64,000 bases of DNA from Planctomycetota bacterium (GTDB lineage: Bacteria > Planctomycetota > UBA1135), in assembly GCA_003696625.1 (NCBI GenBank), contig RFGR01000023.1:8298-72297 (forward strand), read 5' to 3'. Below, in pieces: positions 23,561 to 51,600 of the stretch (the stretch's first letter is position 1; every line of letters begins with the position of its first letter). The notes under the pieces were generated by a model that had not been told where the DNA came from, did no database searches, and worked only from the letters and a program-made list of their open reading frames with translations. A program made the position numbers and the translations under genes.

Positions 23561-24042
23561 CCGTGCCAGAGCAGGGTGATGGTTCGCAGATCCTCCTCCT
23601 GGCCGGCGGTCAGCGAGATGCGCAGGTCGTGGGCGCCGCTCGGGCGGAGCTGGAACTCCCGCACCGCCCGGGCGACCACGAACTCCTCACCGGTCAACCG
23701 ATCCTTGCGCCGGAGAAGGCCGTCCCGAACCGAGTACTCGAGCCCGCGGTCCTCGTCCCCGCCGGCTCCGACCAGAGTCCTGACCGCGGCGGCCTCCCGC
23801 CGGATCCGTAGGACATCGTCGTGCTTCTCGACTCTGTCGGCGGCGCCGAGATCGGACAGCAGCCAGGCGACCGCGACGCGCAGTTCGGCGGCGCCGACGG
23901 CCCGATCCCGGAGACCGACGATCGAGCCGCCGATCGGCCCCCAGGCCCGCGCCGAGAAAGTCGCGACCAGAGCGAGGATGGTTCCGACCACGACCATCTC
24001 GACCAGGGTGTGACCGCTCCGAACCTTGCGGTTGACGCTCAT
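23557..24042 (-). CDS. Pseudopilin (prepilin-type N-terminal cleavage/methylation motif)
   Basis: ATG at 24042. SGHTLVEMVVVGTILAL motif. ATGA overlap with the upstream gene. Confidence 0.75.
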   Translation of the reverse strand: MSVNRKVRSGHTLVEMVVVGTILALVATFSARAWGPIGGSIVGLRDRAVGAAELRVAVAWLLSDLGAADRVEKHDDVLRIRREAAAVRTLVGAGGDEDRGLEYSVRDGLLRRKDRLTGEEFVVARAVREFQLRPSGAHDLRISLTAGQEEDLRTITLLWHG

Positions 24043-24482
24043 CGCTCCTCCTCCTCGCCCTTGCTCTTCTCTTCCTTCTTCTTCTCCTTTTTCTCTTCCT
24101 TCTCCCCTTCCTTCTTCTTCGGAGCTTCCTTCTTCTCGGCTACGTTCTGCTCGAAGACCGCGGTGGTCCGCGGCGGGTCCAGCTCCCGCCAGACCTTGGT
24201 CACGGTGACCTCGTAGGGGCCTTCGGCCGGCACGTGGATCGTCATCCCGGGATCGACCGCCAGCGTCGCCGGTACACCGAGCGCCCGGGCCAGGGGGTCC
24301 GGATCCTGAACGACGTGCAGGACGGGGTCGCCGTAGGTCCAGTCGTCGACTCCGTCCAACACCTCCTGGTGGCCCTTGACGAGCTGGATCATGCCGAGCA
24401 CGACCAGGTTGAGGACCAGCACGGCCACCATGCACTCGAGCAGGGTGAACCCGGCGCCGTTGCGTTCAGGGCTGGACGACAT
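24039..24482 (-). CDS. Pseudopilin with a Lys/Glu-rich C-terminal tail
   Basis: GAGFTLLECMVAVLVL prepilin motif. The last roughly 32 aa are EKKEAPKKKEGEKEEKKEKKKEEKSKGEEEER. Start is the ATG at 24482 (or the GTG at 24491). Confidence 0.75.
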   Translation of the reverse strand: MSSSPERNGAGFTLLECMVAVLVLNLVVLGMIQLVKGHQEVLDGVDDWTYGDPVLHVVQDPDPLARALGVPATLAVDPGMTIHVPAEGPYEVTVTKVWRELDPPRTTAVFEQNVAEKKEAPKKKEGEKEEKKEKKKEEKSKGEEEER

Positions 24483-24876
24483 GGCCGTCACGACTGGTCT
24501 GGCCGGTGATCCGGCCTTCCTCGTCGAGCACGAGGCTGCCGGTCCAGCCGGTCGCCCGAATCCGTCGGGCCTCGATCTCGACTCCGTTCGGCCGGGCCCG
24601 CCGAATCCGATACTGGAAATCCTCGTCGCCCTCCAGAACTGAGGACCGGATCACGCCGAGCCGCACCAGATCCTGGACCGAGGGGGTGAACTCGCCCTGC
24701 TCGAGCCGGTACATCCGTTCCGCCAGCCAGATCGAGTGCAGGACGGCGGCGCCCTTGTCCACGGTCGCGGTCTCCATTGCGACGCTGACCTCCGGCACCG
24801 CCGCCAGCGCCAGGAGCCCGGCGATGACCAGGACGACGGTCAGTTCGATCAAGGAGAAACCGCCGCGCCGGATCAT
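24466..24876 (-). CDS. Pseudopilin (GspG/H-like)
   Basis: MIRRGGFSLIELTVVLVIAGLLA prepilin motif. Confidence 0.8.
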   Translation of the reverse strand: MIRRGGFSLIELTVVLVIAGLLALAAVPEVSVAMETATVDKGAAVLHSIWLAERMYRLEQGEFTPSVQDLVRLGVIRSSVLEGDEDFQYRIRRARPNGVEIEARRIRATGWTGSLVLDEEGRITGQTSRDGHVVQP

Positions 24877-26024
24877 CCCTCTCCGCCTCCTTCCGGGTCG
24901 GAATCGGCCGGCTCCACTTCCGGTGCCGGCTTCTCCTCCGGCGCCGGCGCCGGCACCTGCTGCAGGTGCCGGGCCTGGGCGGCCATGATGCCGGCCAGCG
25001 GCGCCGCGTCCGCCCCGAGCCGGATCGCTTCGAGATAGCAGTCGAGCGCCGCCTGATGCTGACCGGCGCTGTGGCGGAGATGACCGAGCAGAACCAGGGA
25101 GCGACTGTCGCCGGGATCCCGACGCAGGGCCTCGCCGATCGCGTGGAAGGCGCCCTCGGCGTCGCCGAGCAGGAAACAGGCGCGGGCCAGGTCGGCCCAG
25201 GCGTCGTCGTCTTCAGGGTGGATGTCGAGGTAGTGCTCGAGGTGGTCCCGTCCCTTCTCGGGCCGGCCGGCGACCAGGGCCGCCCGCCCGAGCGCGAGAT
25301 TGAGCGGGTCGGTCAGCTCATTCGGCTCGAGGTCACGGCCGAGATCGGCCGCTTCCGACCCCCGGCCGGCCAGAGCCAGGGCGAGGACCGCGGCGCGGAG
25401 GAGGTCGCCGTCTTCCGGCCGCATCGCGATCGCGGCCTGGTAAGACTGGGCGGCTGCGGCCGGTTCGCCGGCCGCCAGGCGCGCGTCGCCGGCGGCCCGC
25501 AGGAGTTCGACAGAGGCCGGCCGCACCGCCGCCTCTCGGTCGAGCAGGCCGGCGGCCGCGGCCGGCTGACCGGCGGCCAGCAGAGCCCGGGCCTGCCGGA
25601 GCACCGGCTCGAGATCGTCGGGAGCGCGCCGCGAAGCCAAGGCGTAGCAAGAGGCGGCGTCCTCGAAGCGACCGCGGGCCTCGGCGAGCTGACCGCGAAT
25701 GAGGGCGACGGCCTCGCTTTCCTCGTCCAGCACCTCGGCTGCGGCCAGCTCCTCTTCCGCCGCCGCGTAGGAACCCGCGAGAATCAGGCTGCGGGCGCGG
25801 GCCAGGCGCAGACGAAATTCTTCCCGACCGTCCGGCACCGCGGCCAGTTCGCGCATGGCCTGCTCGCCGTCGTCGGCCGCCAGGTTCCTTTCCGCCTCCG
25901 CCAGGGCGATCTCGGCACGGGCCTGTTCGAAGTGCTCGCGCGGAGCATCGTCATCGACCCGATACACGGAATTCACGCAGGCCGACAGAAAGGCGGTGAG
26001 GAGAAGCAGGGTCGGGATTCTCAT
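24873..26024 (-). CDS. TPR-repeat lipoprotein, candidate secretin pilotin (PilF/PilW-like)
   Basis: Lipobox LLTAFLSAC. Multiple Ala-rich TPR-like repeats. Position immediately downstream of the secretin gene. Confidence 0.65.
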   Translation of the reverse strand: MRIPTLLLLTAFLSACVNSVYRVDDDAPREHFEQARAEIALAEAERNLAADDGEQAMRELAAVPDGREEFRLRLARARSLILAGSYAAAEEELAAAEVLDEESEAVALIRGQLAEARGRFEDAASCYALASRRAPDDLEPVLRQARALLAAGQPAAAAGLLDREAAVRPASVELLRAAGDARLAAGEPAAAAQSYQAAIAMRPEDGDLLRAAVLALALAGRGSEAADLGRDLEPNELTDPLNLALGRAALVAGRPEKGRDHLEHYLDIHPEDDDAWADLARACFLLGDAEGAFHAIGEALRRDPGDSRSLVLLGHLRHSAGQHQAALDCYLEAIRLGADAAPLAGIMAAQARHLQQVPAPAPEEKPAPEVEPADSDPEGGGEG

Positions 26025-27685
26025 GACTGCTCCTGACCGAAGTCGTTCAGGTTGACAAGAAGCCGGCGGAGAATCTGCTGGTCGACCGGGCGGGTGGATT
26101 CGCCGGAGACCAGGGACCGGCTGATGGCGCCGCGCAACGCGAGCGCCGGTCGGCTGATGCCGGTGAGGCCGTCGGCGACACGGGCCAGGACGAGGGCGGC
26201 GCCGCCGAGGCCGCCATCGGCGAGCCGGCGGGCGGTCTGCAGGTAGACGGCGCGGACGGGCCGAGGCACCCCGAGATCGAACTCGGAGCGGGCGGGCGGC
26301 GCCGGCTCTTCGTCGAGGATGTGCGGAGTGAGGAGGACGATGATCTCTTCCCGGACCGTGCTGTTCTCGACCCCGCGGAAGAGCCGGCCGACGAACGGCA
26401 GGTCGCCGACCACCGGCACCTTGCTCGCGGTGCTCTTGACCTTTTCCCGGAAGAGGCCGCCGATGGCGACGGTCTCGCCGTCTCGGAGCAGGATGTTGGT
26501 GGTCACCTCCGCCGTTTCCTTGAACGGCAGACCGTTGGGGTTCAGCCCCCCCTCCGAGTCCTCGGGGTGGACTTCGAGTCGGATCAGGCCGTCCTCGCTG
26601 ATGAACGGCCGGTAGACCAGGCGGGTGCCGGTCTCGATGAACTCGACGGTCTGGGTGCTCGAGGTGTCCGTCACGGTCGTCGTCAGGTAACCGTCGCGAC
26701 GGCCGAGCAGCACCTCGCCCCGCTGCTTGTTCAAGGTGACGATCTTCGGGTTGGCCAAGATCGAGGCGTTGGCCACCTGCTCCAGCGCACGCAGGAAGAC
26801 GCCGACGTCGCCGTTGATGACCCCGGCGGTCAAGCCGCCGCCGGGCAGACCGGCCGAGACCGAGGAGCCGGCGGCGGTCACGCCCTGCTCGAGCTGGGAA
26901 CCACTGATGCTGCCGCCGGAGAGCGAGGTGCCGTCGGCGCTGGTCACGCCCCAGCGCTCGAAGTCGACCCCGCCGAGGGCGTGGAAGTCCACCCCCATCG
27001 CCATGCTGTCGCTCAACTGCACCGAGAGGATGGTCGCCTCGAGCAGCACCTGGCGCGGCCGACGGTCGAGGGTGGCGACGACGGCGTCGGCCTGCTCCAG
27101 AAACGACTCGGGGCCGGTGACGACGACCACCTCCGCCGCCGCGTAGCTGTCGCCGCCGGCTTCGGTCTGGCTGGTCTCGATGCCCACCTTGGCCACGGTC
27201 GAGGCGGCCGCGGTGGCGCCTTCGACCAGCATCGGCTTGAGGACGCTGACCACATCCTCGGCCCGGGCGTACTCGAGTTCATAGAGCCGGCTGCCGGTCT
27301 CGGCCGGAGCGATGAAGATGAAGGCCCCTTCGTCCCGGGCCTGCAGGCCGGTGCTGCGGCAGACCAGATCGATGGCCTCCTCGGCGGTCAGGTCGAACAG
27401 GTCGCCGGAGAAGGTGGCCGTGACCTCGGGAGCGACGACGATGTTGCGGTGGGTGATCTCGCGGATCTGCGCGAACACGTCGTGGACGCGGACGTCCCGC
27501 GCGTGGTACTCGATCCGTTTCTCGGTCGGCGACGCCCCCGGCAAGTGGAAGTCCGGCGGCAGCGGCTCGGCCAGCAGACGGGCGACGGCCTCCGGGTCCG
27601 GGCGCACGCCGCTCTCCTGCGCGGCCAGGTTGCCGGCCGCGAGGATGAGTGCGCAGAGCAAGAGAGGGGTTCGGAGTTGCTTCAA
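26021..27685 (-). CDS. Secretin (GspD/PilQ family outer-membrane channel)
   Basis: TTG start with signal peptide KQLRTPLLLCALILAAGNLAAQ. C-terminal secretin signature VPVVGDLPFVGRLFR...EEIIVLLTPHIL. Confidence 0.88.
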   Translation of the reverse strand: MKQLRTPLLLCALILAAGNLAAQESGVRPDPEAVARLLAEPLPPDFHLPGASPTEKRIEYHARDVRVHDVFAQIREITHRNIVVAPEVTATFSGDLFDLTAEEAIDLVCRSTGLQARDEGAFIFIAPAETGSRLYELEYARAEDVVSVLKPMLVEGATAAASTVAKVGIETSQTEAGGDSYAAAEVVVVTGPESFLEQADAVVATLDRRPRQVLLEATILSVQLSDSMAMGVDFHALGGVDFERWGVTSADGTSLSGGSISGSQLEQGVTAAGSSVSAGLPGGGLTAGVINGDVGVFLRALEQVANASILANPKIVTLNKQRGEVLLGRRDGYLTTTVTDTSSTQTVEFIETGTRLVYRPFISEDGLIRLEVHPEDSEGGLNPNGLPFKETAEVTTNILLRDGETVAIGGLFREKVKSTASKVPVVGDLPFVGRLFRGVENSTVREEIIVLLTPHILDEEPAPPARSEFDLGVPRPVRAVYLQTARRLADGGLGGAALVLARVADGLTGISRPALALRGAISRSLVSGESTRPVDQQILRRLLVNLNDFGQEQS

Positions 27686-28782
27686 GTCGCCATCTCGAAC
27701 AGCGGCAGGTAGAGGGCGGTCAGGATCAGGGCCACTGCCAAGCCCATGAGCACGATCAGCACGGTCTCGATGTTCGAGGCGATTCGGGTCACGACCACCT
27801 CGACCTTGCGCTTGTAGAACTCGGCCACCTCGGCGTGGACCTCGGGCAGGGTGCCGGACTCCTCACCGATCCGGGTCATGTTGATCGAGAACGAGGTGAA
27901 GACTCCGGTCACCGCCATCCCGTCGGCCAGATTGCCGCCGCGGCCGATGTGCTGGGCCAGGCGCTTCATCGCCGCCCGATAGACCGGGTTGCGGCCGAAG
28001 ATGCCTTTCAGGGCGTCCATCGACTCGAGCAAGGGGACGCCGGACTGAAGCAGGGAGGCGAGGTTCTGCGAGAAGGTCTGCATCGCCGTTTGGACCATCA
28101 GGTCGCCGGACAGCGGCATCGAGATCAGGAACTTGGTCCAGACCCGGGAGCCGTCCTCGCCGCGGATGTACTGGCGGAAGGCGTAGAAGGCGCCGATCAG
28201 CCCCAACAGCAGCCAGTGGCCCCGCTCGCGCAGGAAGTCGGAAGCCGCCAGGACCTTGATGGTGAGGTCCGGAAGCTCCTTGCCCATGTCCTCGAACATG
28301 CTCGCGAAAGTCGGCACCACGAAGACCAGCATCACGATCACGGCCGAGGTGGAGACGCCGAGGACGATGCAGGGATACATCAGGGCGCTGACGATCTTGC
28401 TGCGGAACTGGGCCGCCTCGTCGATCGTCGCCGCCAGCCGCATCAGGACTTCCCCGAGCTGACCGGAGACCTCGCCCGAACGGACCAGTTGGGTCCACTC
28501 CGGCTTGAAGTGCTCGGGCCAGGCCGCGAGCGCCTCGCTGAGCCGATCGCCGGCGGCGATCCGCTCGCCGATGGCCTGGATCACCTTCCGCATCTGCTTG
28601 CTCTCGGACTGCTCGGCCGCGATCATCACCGCCTGGTAGAGCGGGGTCCCGGCTCGGAACAGCGTGTTGAGCTGACGGAAGAAGGCCAGCTTGTCGCTCA
28701 GCTTGATCTTGTCGTGGACCGGGTCGGCGATGCGCGGCTTGAAGTAGCCGAGGCCGAGGTCGGGAGCGGCGGCGGCGGCCAT
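27682..28782 (-). CDS. Type II secretion / type IV pilus platform protein (GspF/PilC family)
   Basis: Two T2SF repeats (LNTLFRAGTPLYQAV and LASLLQSGVPLLESM) and three TM segments. ATG at 28782 lies 1 nt after the GspE stop. Confidence 0.88.
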   Translation of the reverse strand: MAAAAAPDLGLGYFKPRIADPVHDKIKLSDKLAFFRQLNTLFRAGTPLYQAVMIAAEQSESKQMRKVIQAIGERIAAGDRLSEALAAWPEHFKPEWTQLVRSGEVSGQLGEVLMRLAATIDEAAQFRSKIVSALMYPCIVLGVSTSAVIVMLVFVVPTFASMFEDMGKELPDLTIKVLAASDFLRERGHWLLLGLIGAFYAFRQYIRGEDGSRVWTKFLISMPLSGDLMVQTAMQTFSQNLASLLQSGVPLLESMDALKGIFGRNPVYRAAMKRLAQHIGRGGNLADGMAVTGVFTSFSINMTRIGEESGTLPEVHAEVAEFYKRKVEVVVTRIASNIETVLIVLMGLAVALILTALYLPLFEMAT

Positions 28783-28783
28783 C

Positions 28784-30571
28784 TCAATCCACCCGGATGT
28801 AGTCCGAAACCTCCTCAAGGCTGGTCACACCCTCCGCCAGACGCAGGCGGGCGGTGTCGTCGAGCAGATGGATGCCCAGGCCGCGCACCGCCTGCCGCAA
28901 ATCACGCTCGCTGGCGCTGTGGCTGATCAGGTCGGCCAGGTCCTCGCCGATCGGGACCACTTCGTAGAGGCCGACCCGGCCCTTGTAGCCCAGGCCGCGG
29001 CACTTCGGGCAGTCCGGCTCGCGGCTCGGGCCGTAGAGTTCGAGGTCGGGGTCGAGGCCGTGCCGCTTGGCGACGTCGGCCGGCAGTTCGACCCGCTGCT
29101 TGCACTCGGTGCACAGCCGCCGGACCAGACGCTGCGCCTCCAGCAGCCGCAGCGCCGGCCCGAGCAGGAAGGGCTCCACCCCCATGTCGATCAGGCGGTT
29201 GACCACCTGCAGGGCGCTGTTCGTGTGCAGGGTGGAGAGGACCAGGTGACCGGTGAGGGCGGCGCGCATGCAGATCTGCGCGGTCTCGGTGTCGCGCACC
29301 TCGCCGACCATGATCACGTCCGGGTCCTGACGCAGGAAGGCACGCAGGGCGCTGGCGAAGGTCATGCCGGCGCTGGCCCGCACCGGCACCTGGTTGAGCC
29401 CTTCGAACTTGTACTCGACCGGATCCTCGACGGTGACGATGTTGCGCCCCGGGTCGTTGATCAGGTTGAGGCAGGTGTAAAGGGTCGTCGACTTGCCGGA
29501 CCCGGTCGGACCGGTGACGAAGATCAGGCCGTGATGGGACTGGCCCGCCTCCATAAATGCCCGCGCCTGCTCCGCCGAGAAGCCGAGGTCCTCCATCCGC
29601 TCGGGGATGTTGCCCTTCTCCAGTACCCGCAGCACCATCTTCTCGCCGTAGACCGTCGGCACGGTCGAGGCGCGCAGATCGATGCGCTGGTCGCCGTCCT
29701 TCATCGTGATGCCGCCGTCCTGGGGTTTGCGCCGCTCAGCGATGTCCATCTTGGCCAGGATCTTCAGGCGGGACACGACTTGGCTGAACAAATGCCGCGG
29801 CGGCGGCGTCACCTCGCGCAGGTGGCCGTCGATCCGAAAACGGACCCGGACCGTCTTCTCGTAGGGTTCGAGGTGAATGTCGCTTGCCCCCTCCTCGACC
29901 GCCTGGATCAGGATCGTGTTGACGATGCGCAGGACCTGGCTGGCCTTGCCGGTCGGCAGGTTGCGCTTGAGATCGACGTCAACCGTCTCGTCCCGCTCCT
30001 CGATCGCACGGGCGTCGGCGTCCTCGCCGGACTCGAGGATGATCTCGCGCACCTTGTCGCTCTGGCCGAGAGCCTTGCCCAGATCCTCGTAGAGACGCAG
30101 AGTGGTGGCGTGCGGCACCACCGGCATGCCGACCGATAGACGGAGTTCCTCGATGGTGCTGAAGTCGGCTGGGTTCAGGCAGGCGACGTGAAGCATGCCC
30201 TCGCTGAGGTAGGCCGGGCGGATCTTGCGTTCGGCCGCCAGCTGCTCGGGCAACTCGACGCCGGCCTCCTGGATGGCGGCGGTCAGTTCCTCGATCCGAC
30301 CGATCCGTCGGGGCTCATTGCCCGGGAAGGAATCGATCAGGATCTCCTCGTCGGCCGGCAGTCTGTCGAGGTAGCTGATGCCGAGGTGCTCGGCGTAGGC
30401 CCGCGCCACCACCTCTTCGGGCACGACCCCGTCCCGTATCAGCAGGACTCCGTCCACTGCCATCCCCGGAGCCAGGGTGGAACGGAACCGCTCCAGGTCC
30501 TCCCCGCTGAGGTGGCCCTGGGCGAGGAGGAGGCGGACGATCAGGGGTTCCTTGTCGAGTTCAAGCGCCAC
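28784..30571 (-). CDS. Type II secretion / type IV pilus assembly ATPase (GspE/PilB family)
   Basis: Walker A GPTGSGKSTT, Asp box, Walker B MVGEVRD, His box LSTLHTN and tetracysteine CTECK...CPKCRG. The GTG start at 30571 is tentative. Confidence 0.9.
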   Translation of the reverse strand: MALELDKEPLIVRLLLAQGHLSGEDLERFRSTLAPGMAVDGVLLIRDGVVPEEVVARAYAEHLGISYLDRLPADEEILIDSFPGNEPRRIGRIEELTAAIQEAGVELPEQLAAERKIRPAYLSEGMLHVACLNPADFSTIEELRLSVGMPVVPHATTLRLYEDLGKALGQSDKVREIILESGEDADARAIEERDETVDVDLKRNLPTGKASQVLRIVNTILIQAVEEGASDIHLEPYEKTVRVRFRIDGHLREVTPPPRHLFSQVVSRLKILAKMDIAERRKPQDGGITMKDGDQRIDLRASTVPTVYGEKMVLRVLEKGNIPERMEDLGFSAEQARAFMEAGQSHHGLIFVTGPTGSGKSTTLYTCLNLINDPGRNIVTVEDPVEYKFEGLNQVPVRASAGMTFASALRAFLRQDPDVIMVGEVRDTETAQICMRAALTGHLVLSTLHTNSALQVVNRLIDMGVEPFLLGPALRLLEAQRLVRRLCTECKQRVELPADVAKRHGLDPDLELYGPSREPDCPKCRGLGYKGRVGLYEVVPIGEDLADLISHSASERDLRQAVRGLGIHLLDDTARLRLAEGVTSLEEVSDYIRVD

Positions 30572-31191
30572 GAAGCGGCCTCCACCCCTTCTTCGGCCGG
30601 ATCCGCCTCGGCCCCTGAGTCCGCTTGGGGCACGGGGTTGCCGGCCGGATCGGTCACCAGGACCAGCTTCCGGTGGTCGATCAAATCCAGAGCGAAGACC
30701 CGACCACGCCACTCGACTTTCACCGTCCGCCCGATGATCTGCTTGACGATCGGCGGGTCTTCAAGGCCAGGAAAGGAAATCGCTTCTCCAGGATCGCAGC
30801 GCTGCCCGTTTACGATGGCCGACGCCTGGTCCCCGGCCACCAGGGTGCTGTCCAGGGACAGGACCAGGGATCGAGCGGGGGCGGCGGATGCCGCCTCCTC
30901 GAAGCCTCCTTCGCTCTCGGTCGCCGAGCCCCCGGTCGCTTCGAGGAAGGTCTCCTCGGCCAGATCCCGTTCGGCCCGCTCCCTGAGGATGCGGGCCAGC
31001 CGGAACGGGTCCTCCAGAACCAGCTCCTCCAGCTCGCCGGCCGGCGCCCCCGGCAGCTCGGGGATCTCGGGGACGGCCCGGACCTCCGGCGGCTCGTCGA
31101 CCGGCGGCGTGGGCTGGGCGGCGCTCCAGCCGTACCAGGAGAGGACCGCGGCCACGACCAGAAAGCGATGCTTCTTCAGGGGGCCGATCAA
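30541..31191 (-). CDS. Hypothetical membrane-anchored protein in the PilP/GspC position
   Basis: TTG start overlapping the upstream stop. N-terminal TM FLVVAAVLSWYGW, acidic linker and C-terminal beta-rich region (VKVEWRGRVFALDL). Confidence 0.5.
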   Translation of the reverse strand: MIGPLKKHRFLVVAAVLSWYGWSAAQPTPPVDEPPEVRAVPEIPELPGAPAGELEELVLEDPFRLARILRERAERDLAEETFLEATGGSATESEGGFEEAASAAPARSLVLSLDSTLVAGDQASAIVNGQRCDPGEAISFPGLEDPPIVKQIIGRTVKVEWRGRVFALDLIDHRKLVLVTDPAGNPVPQADSGAEADPAEEGVEAASWRLNSTRNP

Positions 31192-31775
31192 GGCTCCACC
31201 TCCTCCGCCGTCCCATCCTCGATCAGATCTAGGGTGGAGGTTCCGGTCATGATTCGAACCTTGCAGTCCAGGACCAGGACTTCTTCCTCCTGGGACAAAG
31301 CGAAGTCATCGACCCGGATCAGGCGCCCGCAGGTCTCGAGCCGACGCAGGAAATCGGTGAGCTGGAGGAAGCTGCCGGCGGCGCGGACGCCGAGGTCGAG
31401 GATCTGGAAGTTGCCCGAGGACACCGCCTGACCCGGAGTGGTGCTCTGGAGACGGGCCCCGGATTCCTCGAGCTGCTGCTGGATGAACTCCTGCCAGGAA
31501 ACCGGATCGGCCTCTTCTTCCAGGAAGGGCCGATAGCGCTCGACCGCGGCCATCAACTCGGTAGCCTCCTCGAGCTGGCTCACGTTTCCCTCCAGCCGGC
31601 CGATCTCGGACCGGGCGTCGCCCAAGCGGGAGCCGAGGAAGAGGTCCACCGCCAGGCCAGCGGCTAGGATCAGGAAGGCCGTTGCCGCCTGGAAGGATTC
31701 CGCCGTCGCCGTCCAGCGCCGGATCAGGGCGGCGAGACGAAAGCGCGGACCGACTTGGTTTCCGTCGTTGGTCAT
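31188..31775 (-). CDS. PilO/GspM-like assembly protein
   Basis: Single TM ATAFLILAAGLAVDLFL, coiled-coil segment and C-terminal ferredoxin-like region (FLQLTDFLRRLE). Confidence 0.6.
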   Translation of the reverse strand: MTNDGNQVGPRFRLAALIRRWTATAESFQAATAFLILAAGLAVDLFLGSRLGDARSEIGRLEGNVSQLEEATELMAAVERYRPFLEEEADPVSWQEFIQQQLEESGARLQSTTPGQAVSSGNFQILDLGVRAAGSFLQLTDFLRRLETCGRLIRVDDFALSQEEEVLVLDCKVRIMTGTSTLDLIEDGTAEEVEP

Positions 31776-31778
31776 GCC

Positions 31779-33203
31779 TCAGCCCCCCCGCGGTTCGCAG
31801 TCGATCGAGATCACGGCGTAACTCTCCGCATCCTCCTCGATGAGCTGGACGCCGGCGCCGCGCACCCTGGGGAAGGCGGCCTGGATCAGTTCCGACTGTT
31901 GCAGGCTGCGGGTGATGGCATCCACCTCGGGCGGGACGCTGTCGTTCCCCGCCGGCACCCGGCAGCTCAGGTGGAAGAAGCGCTCGCCGTCGGAGTAGGT
32001 CGGCCCCTCCTCGCCATCGTCCTCTGCCCCGAGCAGGAGCGGGTAGCGGCCGATCAACGAATCCTGGCGGGCGGTATCCGGCAGGATCCGGGCGACCTCG
32101 GCGATCAGCGGGTGCCACCGAGCCCCGCGGGCCAGGAAGGCGTGGGCGATCCCGACCTCGAGCCTCAAGGCGTCGAGCAGGTCGCCGATTTCCATTTCCT
32201 CGATTCCGCATCGGGCGAGCAGCTCCTCCTGCTTCTGTTGGAGACGGGTCTGCTCCGCCCGCGCCTCCTGCCAGGCGCCGGCCAGCCACAAGGCCGAGGC
32301 GACGGCGGCGGCCGCCGCCGGCAAAGCCGAACGCCAGGGCAGCCGCGGCAGCCCGGTCTCCTCCTGGCCGGTGCTACGGAACACTTCGAGCGGAGGGCGC
32401 GCCGGCCCCTTCCAGGCCGCCGCGGCCAGGGCACGAGCCAGGAGTTCGGGACCGTAGGGCAGCTCCTCGGCGACCCGAAAAGCGAGGCCGGTCGGCTCGG
32501 CGCAGGCGGCGGCGTGTTCCTCTTGCTCCGGGCCGATGTGATAGAGCACGCCGTCGATCTTTTTCAAGCCGAGTTCGTCTCGGGCGTGGGCGAGCAGGCC
32601 CATCAGACCGGCGGTGACCTGGGCGCAGCTCGGCGGGTCATGGAGATTGAACACCCGGCGGGCGAGGAGGGCGTCCCGCTGCACGAGCAGGGCCATGCCC
32701 TGTCGGGGACCGGCCAGGACCCGGATGTGGCAGTTCCACCGCCGCGGCGTCGGCGACCTGCGGACGGCGTACTGGAGGAGAGCGTGCGAGGTCGGGATCA
32801 GCGGCCGGGCCGAGGCCGGCAGGGCCTGCAGCGCGCTGCGGACCTCTTCGACCAGGCTCTTCGGCCAGGCCAGGATCACGTGAAAACCGCGGCCGGCCCG
32901 GCAAGAGGCGACGTGCAGACCGCCGGCGACCTGCTTGGCCAGGTATTCGATGTACTGGTCTTGTTCGGCCTGGCTGGCCTGGCCGCGGCGGCAGACGAAG
33001 AAGTCCAGGTCGGGGTCGATGCCCAGGGCCAGCGGCCCCTCGAGTCTGCCCTCCTGAAGAAGGCGGGAGATCACTTCGCCGACCTTGTCGCCATCGAGGG
33101 GAACCTCCGCCAACGCCTGTCCCGGGCGAAGCACGGCGAGCCCGTCCCGGCGAAGGAGGACGCCGGTGCGGGCGGTGCGATTACGTCCGAGCAGACGGGG
33201 CAT
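31779..33203 (-). CDS. GspL / PilM-PilN-like bitopic assembly protein
   Basis: ATG at 33203. Cytoplasmic actin-like region, TM SALPAAAAAVASALWLAGAW and PilN-like coiled-coil periplasmic part. Call supported mainly by gene order. Confidence 0.5.
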   Translation of the reverse strand: MPRLLGRNRTARTGVLLRRDGLAVLRPGQALAEVPLDGDKVGEVISRLLQEGRLEGPLALGIDPDLDFFVCRRGQASQAEQDQYIEYLAKQVAGGLHVASCRAGRGFHVILAWPKSLVEEVRSALQALPASARPLIPTSHALLQYAVRRSPTPRRWNCHIRVLAGPRQGMALLVQRDALLARRVFNLHDPPSCAQVTAGLMGLLAHARDELGLKKIDGVLYHIGPEQEEHAAACAEPTGLAFRVAEELPYGPELLARALAAAAWKGPARPPLEVFRSTGQEETGLPRLPWRSALPAAAAAVASALWLAGAWQEARAEQTRLQQKQEELLARCGIEEMEIGDLLDALRLEVGIAHAFLARGARWHPLIAEVARILPDTARQDSLIGRYPLLLGAEDDGEEGPTYSDGERFFHLSCRVPAGNDSVPPEVDAITRSLQQSELIQAAFPRVRGAGVQLIEEDAESYAVISIDCEPRGG

Positions 33204-33286
33204 GGTTCCCGAGGGGGAGATCCTGCGGAACCCCCGCCCTTCTTCGGCGAAGTCGGCGGCCTGGCTGAACGGCGGACGGGAAAGAG

Positions 33287-33314
33287 AGCCGCGGCCGGTC
33301 GCCCGGCCGCGGCT
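33287..33314 (-). terminator. Hairpin (attenuator or partial terminator) between the major pilin gene and the assembly genes
   Basis: Perfect 12-bp stem AGCCGCGGCCGG/CCGGCCGCGGCT with loop TCGC, followed on the minus strand by CTCTTTCC. Confidence 0.5.
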
Positions 33315-33355
33315 GATCACCCAAGGAGAGTCGGACTCCTCGGAATCTGGATCCC

Positions 33356-33769
33356 CTACTTGACCGGGATCAGGTCGTCCTTGATCGAGCTGGCCTTCTC
33401 GTTGAAGCCGTTCTGGTCCCAGACGACGGTGTAGTTGCCGAAGCCGCCGGACGCGCCGCTGCGGGTCAGCTTCATCTGCCACGCGGTCTGCCAGTTCGAG
33501 CTGGTGAAGTTGCCGACATTGAAGTGCTCGGGGCTGTCGATCGAGATGTCGAGGTCGCTCAGCTTCTTGCAGTACTCGCCGTGGCGGGCGGCGTAGCGGG
33601 CCTGCGCGGCCTCGATCTGCGCCAGGTAGGAGAAGGCCTCGCTGGCCTTGCTCCGCTCGACGGCGGTCTGGTAGCGCGGGACGGCGAGCATCGCGAGGAC
33701 GCCCAGGATCACGACGACGATGGTCAGTTCGACGAGGGAGAAACCCTTCTTGTTCTTGGTGAGAGTCAT
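33356..33769 (-). CDS. Major (pseudo)pilin, type IV pilin/GspG-like
   Basis: MTLTKNKKGFSLVELTIVVVILGVLAMLAVPRY is a classic prepilin leader with a Glu5 helix. It is the first gene of the operon. Confidence 0.88.
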   Translation of the reverse strand: MTLTKNKKGFSLVELTIVVVILGVLAMLAVPRYQTAVERSKASEAFSYLAQIEAAQARYAARHGEYCKKLSDLDISIDSPEHFNVGNFTSSNWQTAWQMKLTRSGASGGFGNYTVVWDQNGFNEKASSIKDDLIPVK

Positions 33770-33890: not shown

Positions 33891-33919
33891 TTGTTTCGTT
33901 TCTAGAAAACAGATATAGG
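33891..33919 (+). promoter_or_regulatory. Candidate sigma70-type promoter for the cytochrome gene
   Basis: TTGTTT-17 nt-TATAGG inside the only AT-rich patch of the 225-bp intergenic region, about 75 nt upstream of the ATG at 33995. Confidence 0.4.
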
Positions 33920-33994
33920 TAAACGACTATCTTGAGCCGATCTCCCGGCGGGCTAGGGGAGGGAAACGGTTTCCCCCCGACGGACCCCGAATCC

Positions 33995-36049
33995 ATGCCT
34001 GCCTCCCACTCCACCTCGGTTCTCCCCGGCGTGGCCGCCGCGGTCCTAGCCGCGGTCCTGGTCCTGCCCGCCTGCAACGACGACCAGTCGGCCTCGGCCC
34101 GCGGCGTCCACCCGGACGTCGTCTTGCGCGACCGGCTCGGCAATCCGCTGCCGGCCGGATCGACCGAGCCGTACAGCCCGCGCCGGTCCTGCGGCGCCTG
34201 TCACGACGTCGACCGGGCCGCCAACGGCTACCACTTCCAGCAGGGTCGGACCGACGCCGCCGGAAACATCGTCGTCGGCGACGATTTCTTCGGCGACGGC
34301 CGCGCCTTCCTGCGCTCGCCGGGCATGTACGGCAAGTGGTGACCGCCGGCCTCCGACTCCAGCCAGTTGGCTGGCAAGGACAACGACAGCGCCTCCGAAA
34401 TCGACAAGACCTCCTTCTTCTGGACCGGCATGTGCGGCGGCTGCCACCCGGGCGGCGGCCCCGGCGAATTCGACCGCGACGGCGAACTCTACTACGACGT
34501 CGCGACCGGCCAGTTCGGTTACGAGAAGCTCGGCCTGACCGCGGCCGACGTCGTCCTCGACGGCGACTACGCCTTCGTCAGCCCGCAGACCGGCGCCCTG
34601 ATGCCGGCCGCCTGGGACAAGACCGGCGTCTCCGAGCCGGACTGCTACCTGTGCCACAAACGGGATATCTCGGTGGCGAACGGTGTCGTCAACAACGCCT
34701 TCTGGCGTCAGGCCACTCTGCGCGGCATGGCCAACCTGGTCGACGATCTCGGCGCCACCGTTCCCGCCTTCGCCGCCGCCGCGACCGCCGGCGCCGGCTG
34801 GCACTCGACCTTCACGCTGGCCTCGCTGCCGCCCGGTTCACCGCCGACCGCGTCGGTGCTGCAGGTGAACTACCAGATCGGCCTCGACACCGGTGAGCTG
34901 CGGGTCAACGACCGCGGCAATCTGGTCCTCGCGGGCGCCGGGATCATCCACCGGCCGCGCGACTACGCCTGCTGGGGCTGCCACGCCATGGCCGATGCCA
35001 AGAAGCGCGGGCGCGAGTGGTTCGACCCGGACAAGGACGTCCACTACGCCGCCTTCAATCCGGGCGGCGAGCCGCTGACCAGCCAGGCCTGCACGACCTG
35101 CCACCCGGCCGACATGGACCACGACATCGGCAAGGGCAACGCCACCGCCGGCTCGGTCCGCAACGACACCGACTACGCCGGCCTCCGCACCTGCCGCGAC
35201 TGCCACCTGCCGGGGCCGAACAAGCACCCGCGGGCGCCGGCGCCGAGCGGCGGCCTGCACGACCTTGCCAACCACCTCGAGGTGATGTCCTGCGAGTTCT
35301 GCCACATCCCGTTCAAGGAGGCACCGGCCGACCTGGTGGTGGACAACTGCGTCACCGGCTCCTCGATCGGCTACCAGACCGACGCCTTCCTGTCGGCCGA
35401 TCCGCTCGATCCGACCGATCCCTTCGACGACCGCTGGTACCCCGCCTTTACCTGGAAGGTGGACAAGGACGGCGTCACCCGGCTGTTCCCGATCAAGGAC
35501 CTCCAGACCGCCTGGTGGGGGGATTGGGACGACAACGGCACCCCCGACAACTACGCCGACGACCTCATCCAGCCGCTGATCCTCTGGCGGGTCCGGCAGA
35601 TCACGGGCGGCGCCGCTCTGCCCGGCACCACCGACGACAACTCGGACGGCATCCTCGAGGTCAACAACGAGGCCGAGATCCTGGCCTACATCACCGCCCT
35701 CAAGGGCAACGACAGCTACGGCAACCAGGTCGCGGCGAGGCCGGTGATGGTCAAGGGCGGCAAGGTCTGGTACGAGGACGCCAGCCAGCCGTCCGGCGTC
35801 AACTTCTTCGAGTTGGAGGGCACCGGCCTCCGGGCGGAGAGCCACGCCCCCTTCGCCATCGACCACAACGTCCGCCCGGCCGCAGCCGCTCTCGGCGCCA
35901 ACGGCGACTGCGGAAGCTGCCACCGCGGGTTGAACGGCGGCCAGGAAGTGCCGGTGTTCGACCGCAAGATCCTGGTCGATCCCTTCGACCTGAACGGGGA
36001 CCCGGTGTACTCGACGCCGCGGGAGATGCTCGGCATCAATCCCTTCTAG
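33995..36049 (+). CDS. Octaheme c-type cytochrome lipoprotein with one in-frame TGA at 34340-34342 (selenocysteine/recoding candidate, or a disrupted gene)
   Basis: Lipobox VLVLPAC. Heme motifs CGACH, CGGCH, CYLCH, CWGCH, CTTCH, CRDCH, CEFCH and CGSCH. ORFs 33932..34342 and 34367..36049 are in the same frame, separated only by the TGA. Confidence 0.7.
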
Positions 36050-36074
36050 GCCTTCGCTGGACCAGCCGTGGTGA

Positions 36075-36102
36075 GACGCCCGGGGCTCCGGCGCCGGGCG
36101 TC
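36075..36102. terminator. Hairpin between the convergent cytochrome and malQ genes
   Basis: GACGCCCGG/CCGGGCGTC 9-bp stem with a 10-nt loop, followed by GATTCTTC. Confidence 0.4.
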
Positions 36103-45679: not shown

Positions 45680-48600
45680 TCAGCCCGCGGGCGGCGCCAA
45701 CTCGCGGCCGCCGAGGAAGACCTCGCCGGTCCGCCCGTGGATGGTCAGGACCTCGCCCTGGCGCAGTTCGACCGGCTCGCCGCCGCCGGGCGGCATGATG
45801 CGGGCGCCGCCGCCGGGCCGGATCTCCAGTCCGTTGACGCTCATCACCGCCGAGTAGGAGCGGCCGACCAGGCCGTTGGCGGCCACCGCGGCGTGGGCGG
45901 TGGAGCCGCCCTTGACCGTCATCAGCCCCTGGGCGGAGAGGATGAAGGGGATGTCCTCCGGCGCCGGGTTCTCCAGCACCAGCAGCACGCCGTCGACGTC
46001 CTCGCGCTCGGCCGCGACCGGTTCGAGTTCGGCCAGGCCCTCGGGGCTGAAGGCGACCAGACCGCGGAAACCGCCGCCGCAGACGCCGATGCCGCGGGTC
46101 AAGGGGTCGCCCGGATCGACCAGCTCGCGCACGACCTGGCCGATGCCGGCGGCGGCGGTGCGGCACTGGAGCACGGACAGCACCCCGCGCTCGACCGTGA
46201 ACTCGACCTCCTGGTCGGTGCCGAAGAAGCGGCGCAGCTTGGCGACGATATGGCGCAGCCGCGCCTCGAGCAGCGGCATGGTCTCGTCCAGGCTCGCGAT
46301 CGGCAGGAAAGAGCGGGTGACGCCGCCGACCAGGTCCTCGCCGGCGGCCGAGAACTTGATGTCGCCGACCAGTTCGCGCAGACCGCGTTCGTCGATCCGG
46401 GTGCGCGAGACGACCCCCGTCAGCGAGGCGGCGGCCTCGTCCATGCCGGGCCGGATCTCCTCGTTCGGATAGTTGCCGAAGGCCATCTCCTGGACCACCA
46501 CCGCCGTATGCCAGGTGTCGCAGTAGTCCTTCAGCTCGCGGTAGCGGCGGGTGGTCTCGGCGTCCCAGGAGGCCAGCACCGCCTCGACCGCGGCCAGGAG
46601 CTGACGGCGCGGCTCGGCCAGCAGCCGATCGAGTTCCTCGCCGTGGCCGGCGTCGCGGATCGCCGCCTCCATCTGATCGGCGACCTCGCGCAAAGCCTCC
46701 CAGGGCAGGTCGGACTTGTTGGCGACCCCGTAGCGCTTCTTGGCCGCGTCGACCAGGCCGTGCGTCTCCAGGTCAAGGCGCCAGAAGTCGAAGGCGAGAG
46801 CGCCGAGGAAGCGCCGGTAGCAGTCCCAGGCCCGCCACGGGCCGTCCTCCTCACGGGCCAGACGCTCGGTGATGGCCCGGTTCATGCCCAGGAAGAGGAC
46901 CGTGTCCAGGATCCCCGGCATCGAGAAGACGCTGCCGCCGCGGACGGCGAGCAGCAGCGGCGACTCCTCGTCGCCGAGCCGGCGGGCGACGCCGTCGCGG
47001 CGCTCGAGGTCGGCCTCCAGCCGCTGCAGGTGCTCCTCGACCAGCTCGGCCAGGTCCGGCCCCCGGCCGCGCCGCCGCGCCCGGCCGATGGTGGTCGGCA
47101 GCACGAAGCCGTCCCGGGTCGGAATGTTCAGGTAGGAGATGTAGAGCAGGCTCGAGCCCTTGCCGCCGTAGTAGTCGCGGACGCAGCGCCCGCGCTCGTG
47201 GCGTTCGATCTCGGCCGCGATCGCCGCCCGATCGGACAGGTGCAGCACCGGCGCCTCCGGCAGCGGCCCGCCGTTGCCGGCGCAGGCCGCGCCGGCGCCG
47301 CTCTCGCGCAGCCAGGCGCCGGCCAGGTCGGCGAAGGCGGCCATCGAGTTCAGGTCGTGCATGTAGCGCTGGAGGTTGGCCAGCACCCCGCGCAGCCGGT
47401 CGGGATCGAGGCCGAGCTTCTCCCGCAGCGCCTCGAACGGCGCCGTCACCCGCTGCAGGACCATGTGGTAGCCGCGGCTGATGGCGCCGAGGGCGTTGAG
47501 CAGCTCCTTGCCGCCGCGTCCGGGCGCCGCCAGCAGTTCGGCCAGGTCGGCCAGGTCGCGGCTCTGCAAGCCGGCGAAGCGCAGGTTGTGGGCGCAGAGC
47601 CGGATGACCTCGAGGCACTGCTCCAGATCGACCCCCTGCTCGGCGAAGCGAGCGGCCAGGTGGCGCAGGCTCAGGTAGCCGATCTCCTCGAGCAGGCAGT
47701 CGAGTTGGGAGGCCAGGAAGGCCTGGAGGCGGAAGCCGCCGCCGCGGCGCGGCTCGATCAGGGAGGCGCGCAGCTCGGCGAGGCAGCGGAAGGCCTCGAA
47801 CCACTCCCCCTCCTCATAGAGACCGACCGCGCGTTCGAGATCGTGGAACAGTCCGTCCTGATGGACCGCCCGGACCCCGGCCGTGAAGTCGGCGGCCGCC
47901 TGCTTCAGGCGCTGCTCGGCCGCTTCCGGGTCGAAGCCCTCGACCTCGGGGTGGCACCGCTCGAGTTCGGCCAGCTCGGCCAGGAAGGCGGCGCCGGGGC
48001 CGCCGTCGGCGGCGAACTCCTCCGCCTTCTCACGCAGGATGCGCAGGTGGTGGAGATAGGACCAGCGGTTGCGCTCGCGGATGCCGTCGCTGACCAGGGC
48101 CGCCACCTCGTCGTCGACCAGGTGGCCGAAGCGGCAGCGGAGCAGGGCGTCGGCGTAGGTCTCCTGCCAGGAGCGCAGGCGCTCGACCACCTCGGCCTGG
48201 CCGAGCAGCCGGGCCAGGTCGTCGACCAGCACCTCCATCAGACCGCGCACCTGCGGCAGCGACCTGGCCCGCTCGTCGGCCGGGCCGGGCGCCGGCAGGC
48301 CGACGGCGGCGAGCGGCGCCGGATCGCCGTCGGCCAGCCAGGATCGGTAGGCCTTGACCATCTCCAGGGTCCGGTCGCCGAGCGCGTGGTGGCTGCTGCG
48401 CCGGATCTCGTTGACGATGGCGCTGCCCCGCACCTGCACTTCGGCCAGGTCGATGGTCGCGTTCCAGACCCGGTCGATCACCTTCGGCTGGCCGAGCAGG
48501 GCCGACAGGTTGCGGACCATGACCCGGGTCAGGAAGGACAGCCGATGGCAAAGCGGACCCTCGAGGAAGCGGGAGAGTTGCCGTTCCAGGTTGCGCAGTT

Positions 48601-51600
48601 CCGGCTGCAGGTTCTTGGCCCGCATGAACTCCTGGGCCTCGGCCCCGGCCAGGCGGGCGGTCAGGTGGCGGAGCAGGAAGTTGGCCTCGCTGCGGTTGGT
48701 GCAGTCGTTGATCCGCTGCAGCAAGGCGACCACGTCGCGCAGTCGTCGGACCGGGCGCAGGTCGGTGCGGTCTGGGTCGAAGCGGAAGATCAGCTCCTCG
48801 AGATCGACGACCTCTCCCTGGAAGCCGCCGCGGGCGAGCAGGGCGGCGTCGGTCAGGATCGCCCCCGGCTGCGGCACCCAGGAGTCGATCGCGCGCACCT
48901 CGCCGCCCTGGACGACGTGAAGGATGCACTCGCCGTCCACGATCCAGGGCATGAGCAGACCCTCGCCGCGATAGAAGCGGTTGTTGACCAGGCCGAGCGG
49001 CCGCTCCCGCCGGGCCAGCGCGCTCTTCAGCTCCAGGTAGGCGCGGAGGGCCCGCCGCTGCTCCTTGTCGCCGCCACGCAGCCAGGCCCGCTCGAAGTCG
49101 CGCTCGACCTCGACCAAGCGCGCGACCTCCTCGGCGCTGAAGGCGGTTGGCAGCAGGCCGGCCGTGTCCTCTGGGGCCGGCGGTTCCGAGGCGGACGGGG
49201 TTTCGGGCGCCGGCGCCGGCGGCGCCTCGCGGCGGGCGGCCGTGATCGCGGCCACCGCCCGCTCGAGCGACTCGGCCGGCAGGCTGCGCCGGTCCTCGAG
49301 CACGGTCCGGGCCAGGCGTCCGGCCGCCTCCGGGCCGGACGGCAGATGGCCGACGGCCAGCAGAGCCGCGGCGGCGGCGGCGGCCGCGCCGTCGGGCTCG
49401 GCGGCGGCGGCCAGTTCCCGGCCGACCGCCTCCTCGATCTCCGACCGCCGGTCGGCCAGGGCCGGGAATTCGCCGACCAGCTCGTCGAGCACCGCCCGGG
49501 CGCGGGCGGCCTCGTCCAGCCCTGCCGGCGGCGCGGCCGGCGTCGGAGCCGGCGGGGCGCCCCCGCCGGCCGCCGTCTCGACCTCGTAGAGGCCGGCGAT
49601 CGCTCGCAACTCCTCATGCAGCACACCGCCCTTGGCCGCCAGGGCGGCGGCGGCGGTGCGGAGGGCGGCGACGGCGTCCTCGAAGGTCGGACCGGCCGGC
49701 TCGACGCCCTGGGCCGAAGCGAAGCGCTCGATCAGCGCCAGCATTTCCTCCCGCAGCAGCTCGTAGAGTTCCTTGCCGCGCAGGTGCGCCGCCGCCCGGG
49801 CCAGCGCCAGCGAGGCGGACAGGATCGCGTTCATGCCCAGGTTCTGCTTGCGCTGCATGACCCGAATCCGATCCGCCGGACCGGCGTCGGCGGCGATTTT
49901 TCCGCGCTGCCGGGCGACTTCGAGTTCCAGCCCGAGCAGGGCGCGGTCGATGTCGACCAGGCCGAGGCGGGCCGGATCCTGGCCCTGGAAGCGCGGGGCG
50001 ATCCGTTCGAGGACGTTTTCGACCGCGGTCAGGCAGCCCTTGCCCTGGTAGCGTTGGGCGCGGCGGAACAGTTCGGCCAGGTCGGGATCCTCGGCGCGAC
50101 GGATCTCCGGCTCCTCGACCTCTTTGCGGAAGGCGAAGACTCCGGGTTCGGTCTCCTCGAACAGCTCGCGGTGGCGGGTGATCACCTCGCGGTGCTCGGC
50201 CCCTTCGATCACCGAATCGACCAGGTGGATCGCCTCACCCTCGCCGGCCGAGGTGCCGAGCGGGGTGGCGCCGCGGAAGCGCAGGCCGACCCCGGCTCCG
50301 GCCAGCTCGAGATCGACCTGGGCGCCGACGGTCGGGATGCCGGCGTTGGTCGGCTCCTCCCAGGCGCGCAGGCCGCGGACCCGGGCGGCGCCGGCGGCCG
50401 GCGGCGTCCGGTCGCCCTCGTCCCCGATCCGCAGCATGGTCTCGGTCACGGCCTGGTACTTGACCAGCCGCTCGGTGTTGGCGCCGCCGCCGCACTTCAA
50501 CCCGAGGGCGTTGGCGGCCAGGGCGATCTGGGCCTCCATGTCGTCGTTCGGGCTCTTCGAGCGGTGCGAGACCACCAGCTCCTGGTTCTTGCCGAGGGCG
50601 ACCAGCATCGCCAGCAGGGTCTCGTACAAGGTGCCGATCTGGTTGGCCTTGATCAGGGCGGCGTTGCACAGTCCCTGGTCGGCGGCGCGCTCGATGGTGC
50701 CGTCGTTGGTCGTCACCAGGTCGTCGCCGATGATGAAGATGCGGTCGCCGAGGCGGGCGCGGATGTTCTTCCAGCCCTGGTCGTCGTGCTCGGAGAAGGC
50801 GTCCTCGATCGACAAGATCGGGATCTCGTACTCCTCGATCGCCTTGACATAGAGTTCGAGGACGGCGTCGCGGTCGAGCACGGTCTTGGCCTTGTCGCGC
50901 CAGAACAGGTACATGCCGACCGCGTCCGGTTGGTTGAACTCCCGGCGGTAGGCGATCTCCAGCTCGCTCAGGGCCGGGTCGAGGGCGATGGCGACGTCCG
51001 TGCCCGGACGCAGGCCGCACTCCTCGATCGCCTGCTTGAGCATCGCCCACAGCCGCAGCTCCGGTACCGGATAGGGGCCCTTCTCGATGTAGGGCGCCAG
51101 GCCGCCCTCGAGGCCGATCCCCATCACCCGACAGCCTTCCTCGTTCTCGATGATCTCCTTGAGGCGGGTCTGGAGGCGGATGGTCGTCTCCTGCGCTTCC
51201 TGGTAGTCGGCGGCGCCGAGGATCAGGAACATCGCCTCCTGCATCGAGATGTTCGATTCGGGGTATTCCTTCTCAGTGTGCCGGCCGCCCATGCCGCAGT
51301 TGCGGAACTGCCAGGGCGCGGTCACCGGCCCGAGCAGGGGATGGACCGCCCGCTGCATCCGGTTGGCGAGCATGTGCTGCTTCATCTCGGCGGCCCGGGC
51401 CGACCAGCCGGAGGCCTTCTCGACCTCGGCGGCTTTCTCCCGCGCCAGCCGTTCCCGGCGCTGGAATTCGCGATACTTGCCCGGGTCGGCGAGCAGGAAA
51501 TCGAGCAGGCCGACGGTCCCCAGGCCGAGGCAGAGACGGCCGAGGTAGAGGGCGGCCAGTGACGGCAGCAGCAGTCCGACCGCCAGCAGCAGCGCCGCCG

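Follow-up and report, generated by a model that had tools for sequence, protein, structure and literature searches.

We analysed a stretch of 64,000 nucleotides (nt) of Planctomycetota DNA (contig RFGR01000023.1, positions 8,298 to 72,297 of the forward strand; hereafter the window, numbered from its first letter) and, in it, the region 33995-36049 on the + strand. This region is almost certainly a single intact gene for an eight-heme c-type cytochrome, in which an in-frame TGA is read as selenocysteine (Sec). Precisely, the reading frame runs from the ATG at 33995 to the true stop, the TAG at 36047-36049, and its sole break is the TGA of codon 116 (34340-34342; context GMYGKW-TGA-PPASDSSQLAGKDN). 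The two open reading frames (ORFs) called here, 33932..34342 and 34367..36049, lie in the same frame, as an earlier note made from the sequence alone had described; all its coordinates proved correct in every detail. With 115 codons before the TGA and 568 after it, the complete coding sequence (33995..36049) comprises 684 codons including Sec116, followed by the TAG.

The part before the TGA contains a hydrophobic signal peptide (33995..34075), whose lipobox VLVLPAC ends in L-P-A-C with Cys27 at codon 34073-34075, and a single CXXCH heme-binding motif (heme 1, CGACH, C66-H70, 34190..34204), which is conserved both in the clade of Sec-containing proteins and in the paralogues. The part after the TGA contains seven CXXCH motifs. 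The first of them (heme 2, CGGCH, C147-H151, 34433..34447) probably binds the catalytic heme, by resemblance to octaheme tetrathionate reductase, and the other six are invariant among the homologues: heme 3, CYLCH (34643..34657); heme 4, CWGCH (34970..34984); heme 5, CTTCH (35090..35104); heme 6, CRDCH (35192..35206); heme 7, CEFCH (35291..35305); and heme 8, CGSCH (35909..35923). Translation thus bears out the one-plus-seven distribution of the motifs and the total of eight hemes that had been counted before. The product is a 684-residue periplasmic or outer-leaflet lipoprotein with eight covalent c-type hemes and one Sec (U116).

A hairpin follows the TGA inside the coding sequence. Its core (34359-34374) has the stem CCAGCC/GGCTGG and an AGUU loop at 34365-34368; it starts 16 nt after the TGA, also as previously reported, and its loop begins 22 nt after the UGA of the mRNA. 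Together with a weak lower stem it makes up a putative selenocysteine insertion sequence (SECIS) region at 34343..34385, which we assign on the fold, the conservation, the covariation and a published model of bacterial SECIS elements. The DNA has a G + C content of 71%.

The codon at position 116 among homologues

Homologue loci were obtained by a scan of one genome per species, which returned 80 loci that were translated in frame. The earlier note had proposed an alignment of homologous cytochromes as a check on the TGA, and the outcome was in its favour: beside the window, the same column holds TGA in 29 loci (19 closer and 10 distant ones), each with eight CXXCH motifs; the TGA is set in the motif W-U-P-P in the window and generally in W-U-PP[SA]. 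The column holds Cys in three relatives. These are L048 (Nitrospirota) and L049 (Verrucomicrobiia), both with the codon TGT, and P0031, a metagenome relative.

The closer TGA loci belong to Planctomycetota (L001-L009, L011, L012, L040, L045), to Wallbacteria (L036), to metagenome-assembled genomes of Deltaproteobacteria or Desulfobacteraceae (L041-L043, L046) and to a cultured organism with a complete genome, Desulfoluna limicola ASN36 (L050, NZ_AP024488). In all the 20 closer loci, window included, the ORFs on both sides of the TGA are homologous and in a shared frame, and all orthologues have the lipobox N-terminus, that is, a hydrophobic N-terminus ending in [AG]C. The ten distant TGA loci (L051, L054, L056, L057, L061, L070, L071, L073, L077, L078) were found by tblastn of the N-terminal region against weaker loci; five of them (L070, L071, L073, L077, L078) are from Desulfurobacteriaceae, Thermovibrio and Desulfurobacterium. 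The distant loci encode proteins of 1104-1536 residues with exactly eight CXXCH motifs, and around the TGA they share G-x-W-U-P-P-S-Y-R-Q-L-A, with the exception of L051, which departs after the Sec (W-U-V-F-S-N-R-Q-L-A).

In a neighbour-joining tree the TGA loci formed one clade, at the base of which were the Cys forms and L050. The TGA is replaced in three members inside the clade (TGG in L017, TCC in L027, TTT in L044). On these sequences, the pattern is the usual one of a Sec/Cys family with sporadic loss.

In protein databases the family appears in two populations. At least about 50 protein clusters of 545-585 residues start just past the TGA column, with MAGKDN or LAGKDN, and their name, where they have any, is "hypothetical protein". 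The homologues of the second population, 715-790 residues long, run uninterrupted across the junction and have Ser, Trp, Arg, Gly or Cys aligned at the TGA column; among the uninterrupted homologues, the Cys form P0031 (GMYGRWCPASLE) has the context nearest to that of the window protein. The separate presence of the 560-residue product and its homologues in the databases, together with the 115-residue gene called upstream, would suit a locus made of two genes, one for a 115-residue monoheme lipoprotein and the other for a 560-residue heptaheme protein translated from the TTG at 34367. The downstream product would then have no signal peptide, although c-type cytochromes require export for their maturation. 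This export argument had been made already, and it is sound: the signal peptide is found in the upstream part only, with the lipobox there in all orthologues. Moreover, the predicted starts vary among the orthologues, all the closer loci keep, in frame, the stretch PP[SA][SA]DSSQ that separates the TGA from these starts, the uninterrupted homologues are colinear over the junction, and the TGA column is constant across 30 loci. We therefore consider two separate genes as very improbable.

The TGA itself was checked in an independent assembly. A Logan contig, assembled from a hot-spring metagenome run, spans 33900-36100 at a coverage of ~15.6x and has the TGA unchanged and zero indels with respect to the window, which answers the question of read support that the earlier note had left (an independent ~16x contig with an identical TGA). 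Within the ORF, every difference (9/9) affects a third codon position, with an identical 560-residue downstream product; these substitutions indicate purifying selection on the downstream reading frame. A lone in-frame stop in one sequence is what a pseudogene, a recent nonsense mutation or an assembly error would look like. In this case, the same TGA is found in 29 other loci of several phyla and in the independent assembly, the nine strain differences leave the downstream protein as it is, and the frame has no additional stops or frameshifts, hence a recent mutation or a sequencing error, which had been named as the alternative to recoding, can be set aside at practically no probability.

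Furthermore, TGA terminates 17 of the 23 long coding-like ORFs of the window, so that it is an ordinary stop codon there, and no further in-frame TGA within the coding regions of the window was convincing, the candidates being gene boundaries or off-frame ORFs. One of these candidates, the TGA at 8788-8790 on the - strand, was considered as a second selenoprotein site and rejected as a normal gene boundary, followed by an NrfC-like gene. A genome-wide reassignment of TGA (genetic code 4 or 25) has nothing in its favour beyond the in-frame TGA of the cytochrome gene, and with TGA in use as a stop we give it an equally negligible probability.

Some features of the relatives were recorded as well. 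The non-Sec paralogues L010, L013, L015, L017, L019, L021, L032 and L037, of 715-790 residues and mostly from Phycisphaerae, carry an N-terminal dockerin/EF-hand-like domain of D-x-D-x-D-G repeats (alignment columns ~190-340) and are often present in two or three tandem copies. The proteins of the five Desulfurobacteriaceae loci are 1376-1536 residues long, with large insertions, and all five translations end in a Gly-rich, Cys-containing C-terminal sorting signal resembling MYXO-CTERM (L078, the sole one scanned, gave a sub-threshold match to TIGR03901), which suggests that these five homologues are displayed at the cell surface. In L045 (~6319-8100) the downstream half is apparently frameshifted, with two overlapping ORFs in different frames that match the family; the copy may be decaying, or the assembly may be wrong at this place. 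In the same hot-spring metagenome runs there are other contigs that match the window only over the 31-nt SECIS stretch 34360-34390, with 4 mismatches, which suggests further members of the family in the same community.

The hairpin and the decoding of the UGA

Every TGA locus has the hairpin downstream of its UGA. The position of the stem and of its AGTT loop is constant in the 19 closer loci, 22 nt past the UGA; in the distant loci the loop is 16 nt past the UGA and is again AGUU (AGGU in two), on a stem that is CCGCC/GGCGG, and in L050 UCGUC/GGCGA. In the alignment of the 19 sequences the upper stem is 94.7% paired and the lower stem is weak and variable (67% paired). One of the pairs is never broken: 11 sequences have C-G and 8 have G-C. 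Here the Ser codon TCC gives way to AGC, together with a matching replacement of Gly (GGN) by Ala (GCN).

We then considered the closer and the distant hairpins together, in an alignment of 27 sequences anchored on the loop, in which 86.8% of the cells are paired. Pair 8-19 is A-U in 13 sequences and C-G in 10, and pair 6-21 is C-G in 11, G-C in 6, A-U in 1 and U-A in 1. The covariation score was 0.284 against 0.107 +/- 0.019 for shuffled alignments (reached by 0/500), and it was at most 0.085 when the pairing partners were slid. The mean folding z was -1.85 for the TGA loci vs -0.29 for their non-TGA relatives. L017 and L044, in which the TGA is replaced, keep the peptide DSSQLA and have lost the stem, hence the stem is not a by-product of the peptide.

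A published model of the bacterial SECIS asks for a loop of 3-9 nt, an upper stem of 4-16 bp, a minimum free energy (MFE) of at most -7.5 kcal/mol, a spacing of 16-37 nt to the UGA and a G among the first two nucleotides of the loop (PMC13188914). The window hairpin agrees with the model throughout, with its AGUU loop, its 6-bp stem (7 bp in several orthologues), its spacing of 22 nt and its MFE below the limit. It also resembles the canonical bacterial element (E. coli fdhF type), in that it is a stem-loop in the coding sequence just 3' of the UGA, with a 4-nt apical loop that has G at position 2 and then U, an upper stem of 6-7 bp and a spacing of 16 or 22 nt; it differs from it in its family-specific sequence, in the weak and variable lower stem and in that no bulged U was identified. 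As judged from its conservation and covariation, the hairpin is a family-conserved SECIS, so that the label "SECIS-like", used so far, may be upgraded.

Several results weigh against the decoding of this UGA as Sec. Taken as a single sequence, the window hairpin is thermodynamically unexceptional (MFE -16.3 kcal/mol, z = -0.97; 31/200 shuffles fold as well); with a z of only -0.97, single-sequence thermodynamics was set aside as SECIS evidence and replaced by the comparative data, which lie far outside what chance would give. Rfam returned no SECIS or other family, either for the whole window at the gathering threshold or for 34300-34440 at E <= 10, a result that says little because bacterial SECIS elements are family-specific. 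The covariation may partly stem from few evolutionary events. No selA, selB, selD or tRNA-Sec, nor any other tRNA, was found in the 64-kb window (tRNA scan; domains of 30 annotated ORFs), and the capacity of the source organism to decode Sec is assumed. Finally, in many paralogues the position of Sec is taken by Gly, Ser or Arg, or is a gap, hence residue 116 is not needed for the fold or for electron transfer.

As in the window, tRNA-Sec was not found near the homologue loci. The genome of Thermovibrio ammonificans encodes a tRNA-Sec (PMC5441870), and the Sec-type form of MccSep, a multiheme cytochrome selenoenzyme which we compare below, is known from Desulfobacterota, Nitrospirota and a planctomycete, the anammox organism Ca. 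Brocadia sinica (PMC13510729).

The earlier note had left a choice between a selenocysteine-containing multiheme cytochrome and programmed readthrough, and these two parts fared differently. In a readthrough without Sec, the hairpin would promote the insertion of a standard amino acid at the UGA (e.g. Trp or Cys, by a near-cognate tRNA). A downstream hairpin could in principle stimulate this, no Sec machinery was seen in the window, and the in-clade relative L017 has TGG (Trp) at the column. However, the residue found at the column in L048, L049 and P0031 is Cys, the usual replacement of Sec; the size of the loop, the position of its G and the spacing of the hairpin are those of the bacterial SECIS model; and the TGA-type genes sit in lineages known to decode Sec (Thermovibrio, Desulfobacterota, Planctomycetota). 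Plain readthrough at a UGA conserved across phyla is not known from bacteria. We favour Sec over generic readthrough because of the Cys at the column, the match to the bacterial SECIS model, the covariation and the absence of the hairpin where there is no TGA, and we hold readthrough without Sec to be improbable. The selenocysteine part is strongly supported by the TGA in the same column, the Cys relatives and the covarying hairpin, and to the reading of the locus as a genuine selenoprotein gene, one ORF with Sec116, we assign from these comparisons a probability of about 0.88.

On the established bacterial mechanism, the ribosome would meet the UGA at codon 116 and then, in the coding region, the hairpin with its stem of 6-7 bp and its AGUU loop 22 nt after the UGA; the hairpin would recruit SelB-GTP-Sec-tRNA(Sec), and Sec would be inserted with no termination. 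The pre-protein would cross the membrane unfolded, receive its lipid at Cys27 and have heme attached at the eight CXXCH motifs. Under selenium limitation, only the 115-residue monoheme fragment would be made.

Family placement and the role of residue 116

Searches of Pfam and NCBIfam gave only generic multiheme matches for the window protein. The best NCBIfam match was TIGR04315, with 25.2 bits over residues 347-440 only (cut-off 375), and TIGR04315 was also the best NCBIfam match for every member of the superfamily tested, always below threshold (34-62 bits). NF040886, the model of MccSep/ExtKL, was absent from the matches of the window protein at E <= 0.1, and NF041198 (UshA-like) reached 16.8 bits against a cut-off of 275, all from a generic multiheme stretch. 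The PDB was searched by sequence with the single protein, with the family profile and with the N-terminal part of L050, and neither tetrathionate reductase nor MccSep could be usefully aligned; the profile search matched only the dockerin/EF-hand-like extension of the non-Sec paralogues.

A structure model was made for the Cys-type homologue P0031 (AlphaFold, with an alignment of 117 sequences). Its predicted local distance difference test score (pLDDT) was 87.3, and ~89-93 around the Cys loop, with a predicted template modelling score (pTM) of 0.87. When the model was compared with the PDB by Foldseek, the only significant match was 1SP3, the octaheme tetrathionate reductase of Shewanella oneidensis (E 1.3e-5, probability 1.00; template modelling score 0.30/0.47, root-mean-square deviation 12 A, identity 14%). 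As far as this model tells, the family is a distant and much enlarged relative of the Shewanella octaheme tetrathionate reductase, and not a member of TIGR04315, the family of that enzyme. The window protein shares with the tetrathionate reductase the eight CXXCH motifs and it is ~250 residues longer; the Desulfurobacteriaceae forms are >1000 residues longer. A multiheme reductase with a special heme 2 is likely to be the design that the two have in common. TIGR04315 itself has a GenBank-annotated Sec member, WP_331457571.1 (PMC13188914).

The loop G-K-W-U-P-P that contains U116 is strictly conserved; it lies between the motifs of heme 1 and heme 2, with U116 31 residues before the latter. In the Chloroflexota-type homologues (L052, L053, L055, L058, L059, L060, L062-L068, L075, L076) the Sec is replaced by N or D and the CXXCH motif of heme 2 by GARH or GERV; Sec and heme 2 are tied together, since these homologues have lost both. 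As for heme 2 of tetrathionate reductase, Mowat et al. reportedly described it in 2004 as catalytic and Lys-ligated. We considered K128 as an obligatory Lys ligand of heme 2 in the window protein and rejected it, given that the Sec-type loci L011, L045 and L056 have Leu or Gln there.

The residues specific to the Sec clade (present in >=90% of it and rare in paralogues) include Y79, H80, M111, P117, P118, D121, K138, D334, K337, R340 and H427, and the basic ones among them suggest an anion-binding pocket. No Cys outside the CXXCH motifs is conserved in the Sec clade, and only ~6-7 conserved His outside the motifs are available for eight hemes. From these patterns of conservation, heme 2 most likely has U116 in its distal pocket as a catalytic nucleophile, with axial ligation of heme 2 by U116 as a lesser possibility. 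The likely substrate is an anion of sulfur or selenium (polysulfide, tetrathionate, thiosulfate or selenite), which the protein would reduce with electrons passed on by the other seven hemes.

A bolder version of this proposal can be stated, which we regard as rather unlikely. In it, U116 would be the axial ligand of heme 2, that is, a natural c-type heme with His/selenolate ligation, and multiheme selenoenzymes would have evolved a second time, independently, in this family, which would perform an unrecognised step of sulfur or selenium respiration. The family itself spans at least five phyla, with forms of >1400 residues, probably at the cell surface, in Desulfurobacteriaceae. The axial-ligand assignment is allowed by the shortage of His (~6-7 for eight hemes), by the lack of a partner Cys and by the joint loss of Sec and heme 2.

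The one multiheme selenoenzyme characterised so far is MccSep (ExtKL, NF040886; GSU2937-2936 of Geobacter sulfurreducens), a cytochrome c that acts as a reductase on polysulfide and selenite. It has five hemes, a Sec (U325) in a C-terminal immunoglobulin-like domain and a His/Cys-ligated heme 2 (PMC13510729). Like the window protein, MccSep is a multiheme c-type cytochrome that is exported, and the annotation of both genes shows two ORFs, on either side of an in-frame UGA with a SECIS-like hairpin after it. In both of them a Pro follows the Sec (G-U-P in MccSep, W-U-P-P in the window protein), both families comprise coexisting Sec and Cys forms, and basic residues are found near the Sec, namely R83 and K372 in MccSep and, by conservation only, K138, K337 and R340 in the window protein. 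They differ in that MccSep has five hemes and the window protein eight CXXCH motifs, in that the Sec of MccSep is near the C-terminus and that of the window protein, residue 116 of its 684, between hemes 1 and 2, and in that the window protein is a lipoprotein, which sets it apart from MccSep; the two have no detectable sequence relationship. By analogy, we infer that U116 may be the functional counterpart of U325 in an unrelated protein.

Two results speak against this functional assignment. Precisely, MccSep needs a heme-ligating Cys (C239), whereas the window family has no conserved partner Cys, so that the mechanism of MccSep cannot apply unchanged; and no conserved gene neighbourhood was found across 20 loci.

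Genomic surroundings and meaning of the family

The window gene is flanked by a divergent type II secretion cluster and by glycogen-metabolism genes, and the neighbours of the Desulfoluna copy are unrelated metabolic genes. The type II secretion/pseudopilin cluster (24039-33769, - strand), directly upstream of the cytochrome gene, includes the E ATPase, the F protein, the secretin, an M-like protein and N-methyl pseudopilins; this arrangement is not kept in the other loci. A quinol-oxidoreductase-like module of two adjacent genes lies ~26 kb from the selenoprotein gene, at 6350-8775 on the - strand. One of them (7972-8775) encodes an NrfC/PsrB-like 4Fe-4S protein and the other an NrfD protein (membrane subunit of polysulfide reductase) whose C-terminal domain is multiheme and cytochrome c7-like, and the module could be an electron donor to periplasmic cytochromes. 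An ORF of 2165 codons (45680-52177, - strand) combines enolase C-/N-terminal domains with pyruvate-phosphate-dikinase/phosphoenolpyruvate-utilising domains, which is an unusual fusion if it is real, and could be an artefact of ORF calling in high-G+C DNA. In L001, two 91-nt genes called by ARAGORN as tRNA-Arg(CCT), with the anticodon at position 31, are at 4072-4162 and 4739-4829, 1.1-1.8 kb upstream of the orthologous selenoprotein gene; their length and their duplication are unusual.

A 2026 review of prokaryotic selenoproteomes mentions cytochromes or CXXCH motifs only for ExtKL (NF040886), for the GSU2204 family (NF041027) and for the Sec form of TIGR04315, and it also lists the UshA-like family NF041198 (PMC13188914). 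The window family is absent from this 2026 catalogue, and a large survey may have listed it as "hypothetical protein". It has no NCBIfam model and reaches none of the catalogued models of heme-related selenoproteins. The recoding follows the canonical mechanism; what the catalogue lacks is the protein family.

As regards annotation, at least about 50 clusters of the family are now recorded as "hypothetical proteins" of ~560 residues, which miss the signal peptide, the first heme and the Sec, and recognising the recoding repairs these gene models. MccSep, the first multiheme selenoenzyme, was characterised as late as 2026, as the polysulfide reductase that had been missing from sulfur respiration (PMC13510729). 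The window protein would be a second multiheme selenoprotein, unrelated to MccSep, with another architecture and no partner cysteine. Its carriers are sulfur-associated thermophiles (Desulfurobacteriaceae), Desulfobacterota and hot-spring Planctomycetota, and with it, whether the chemistry of Sec plus heme is a general solution for chalcogen reduction becomes a testable question.

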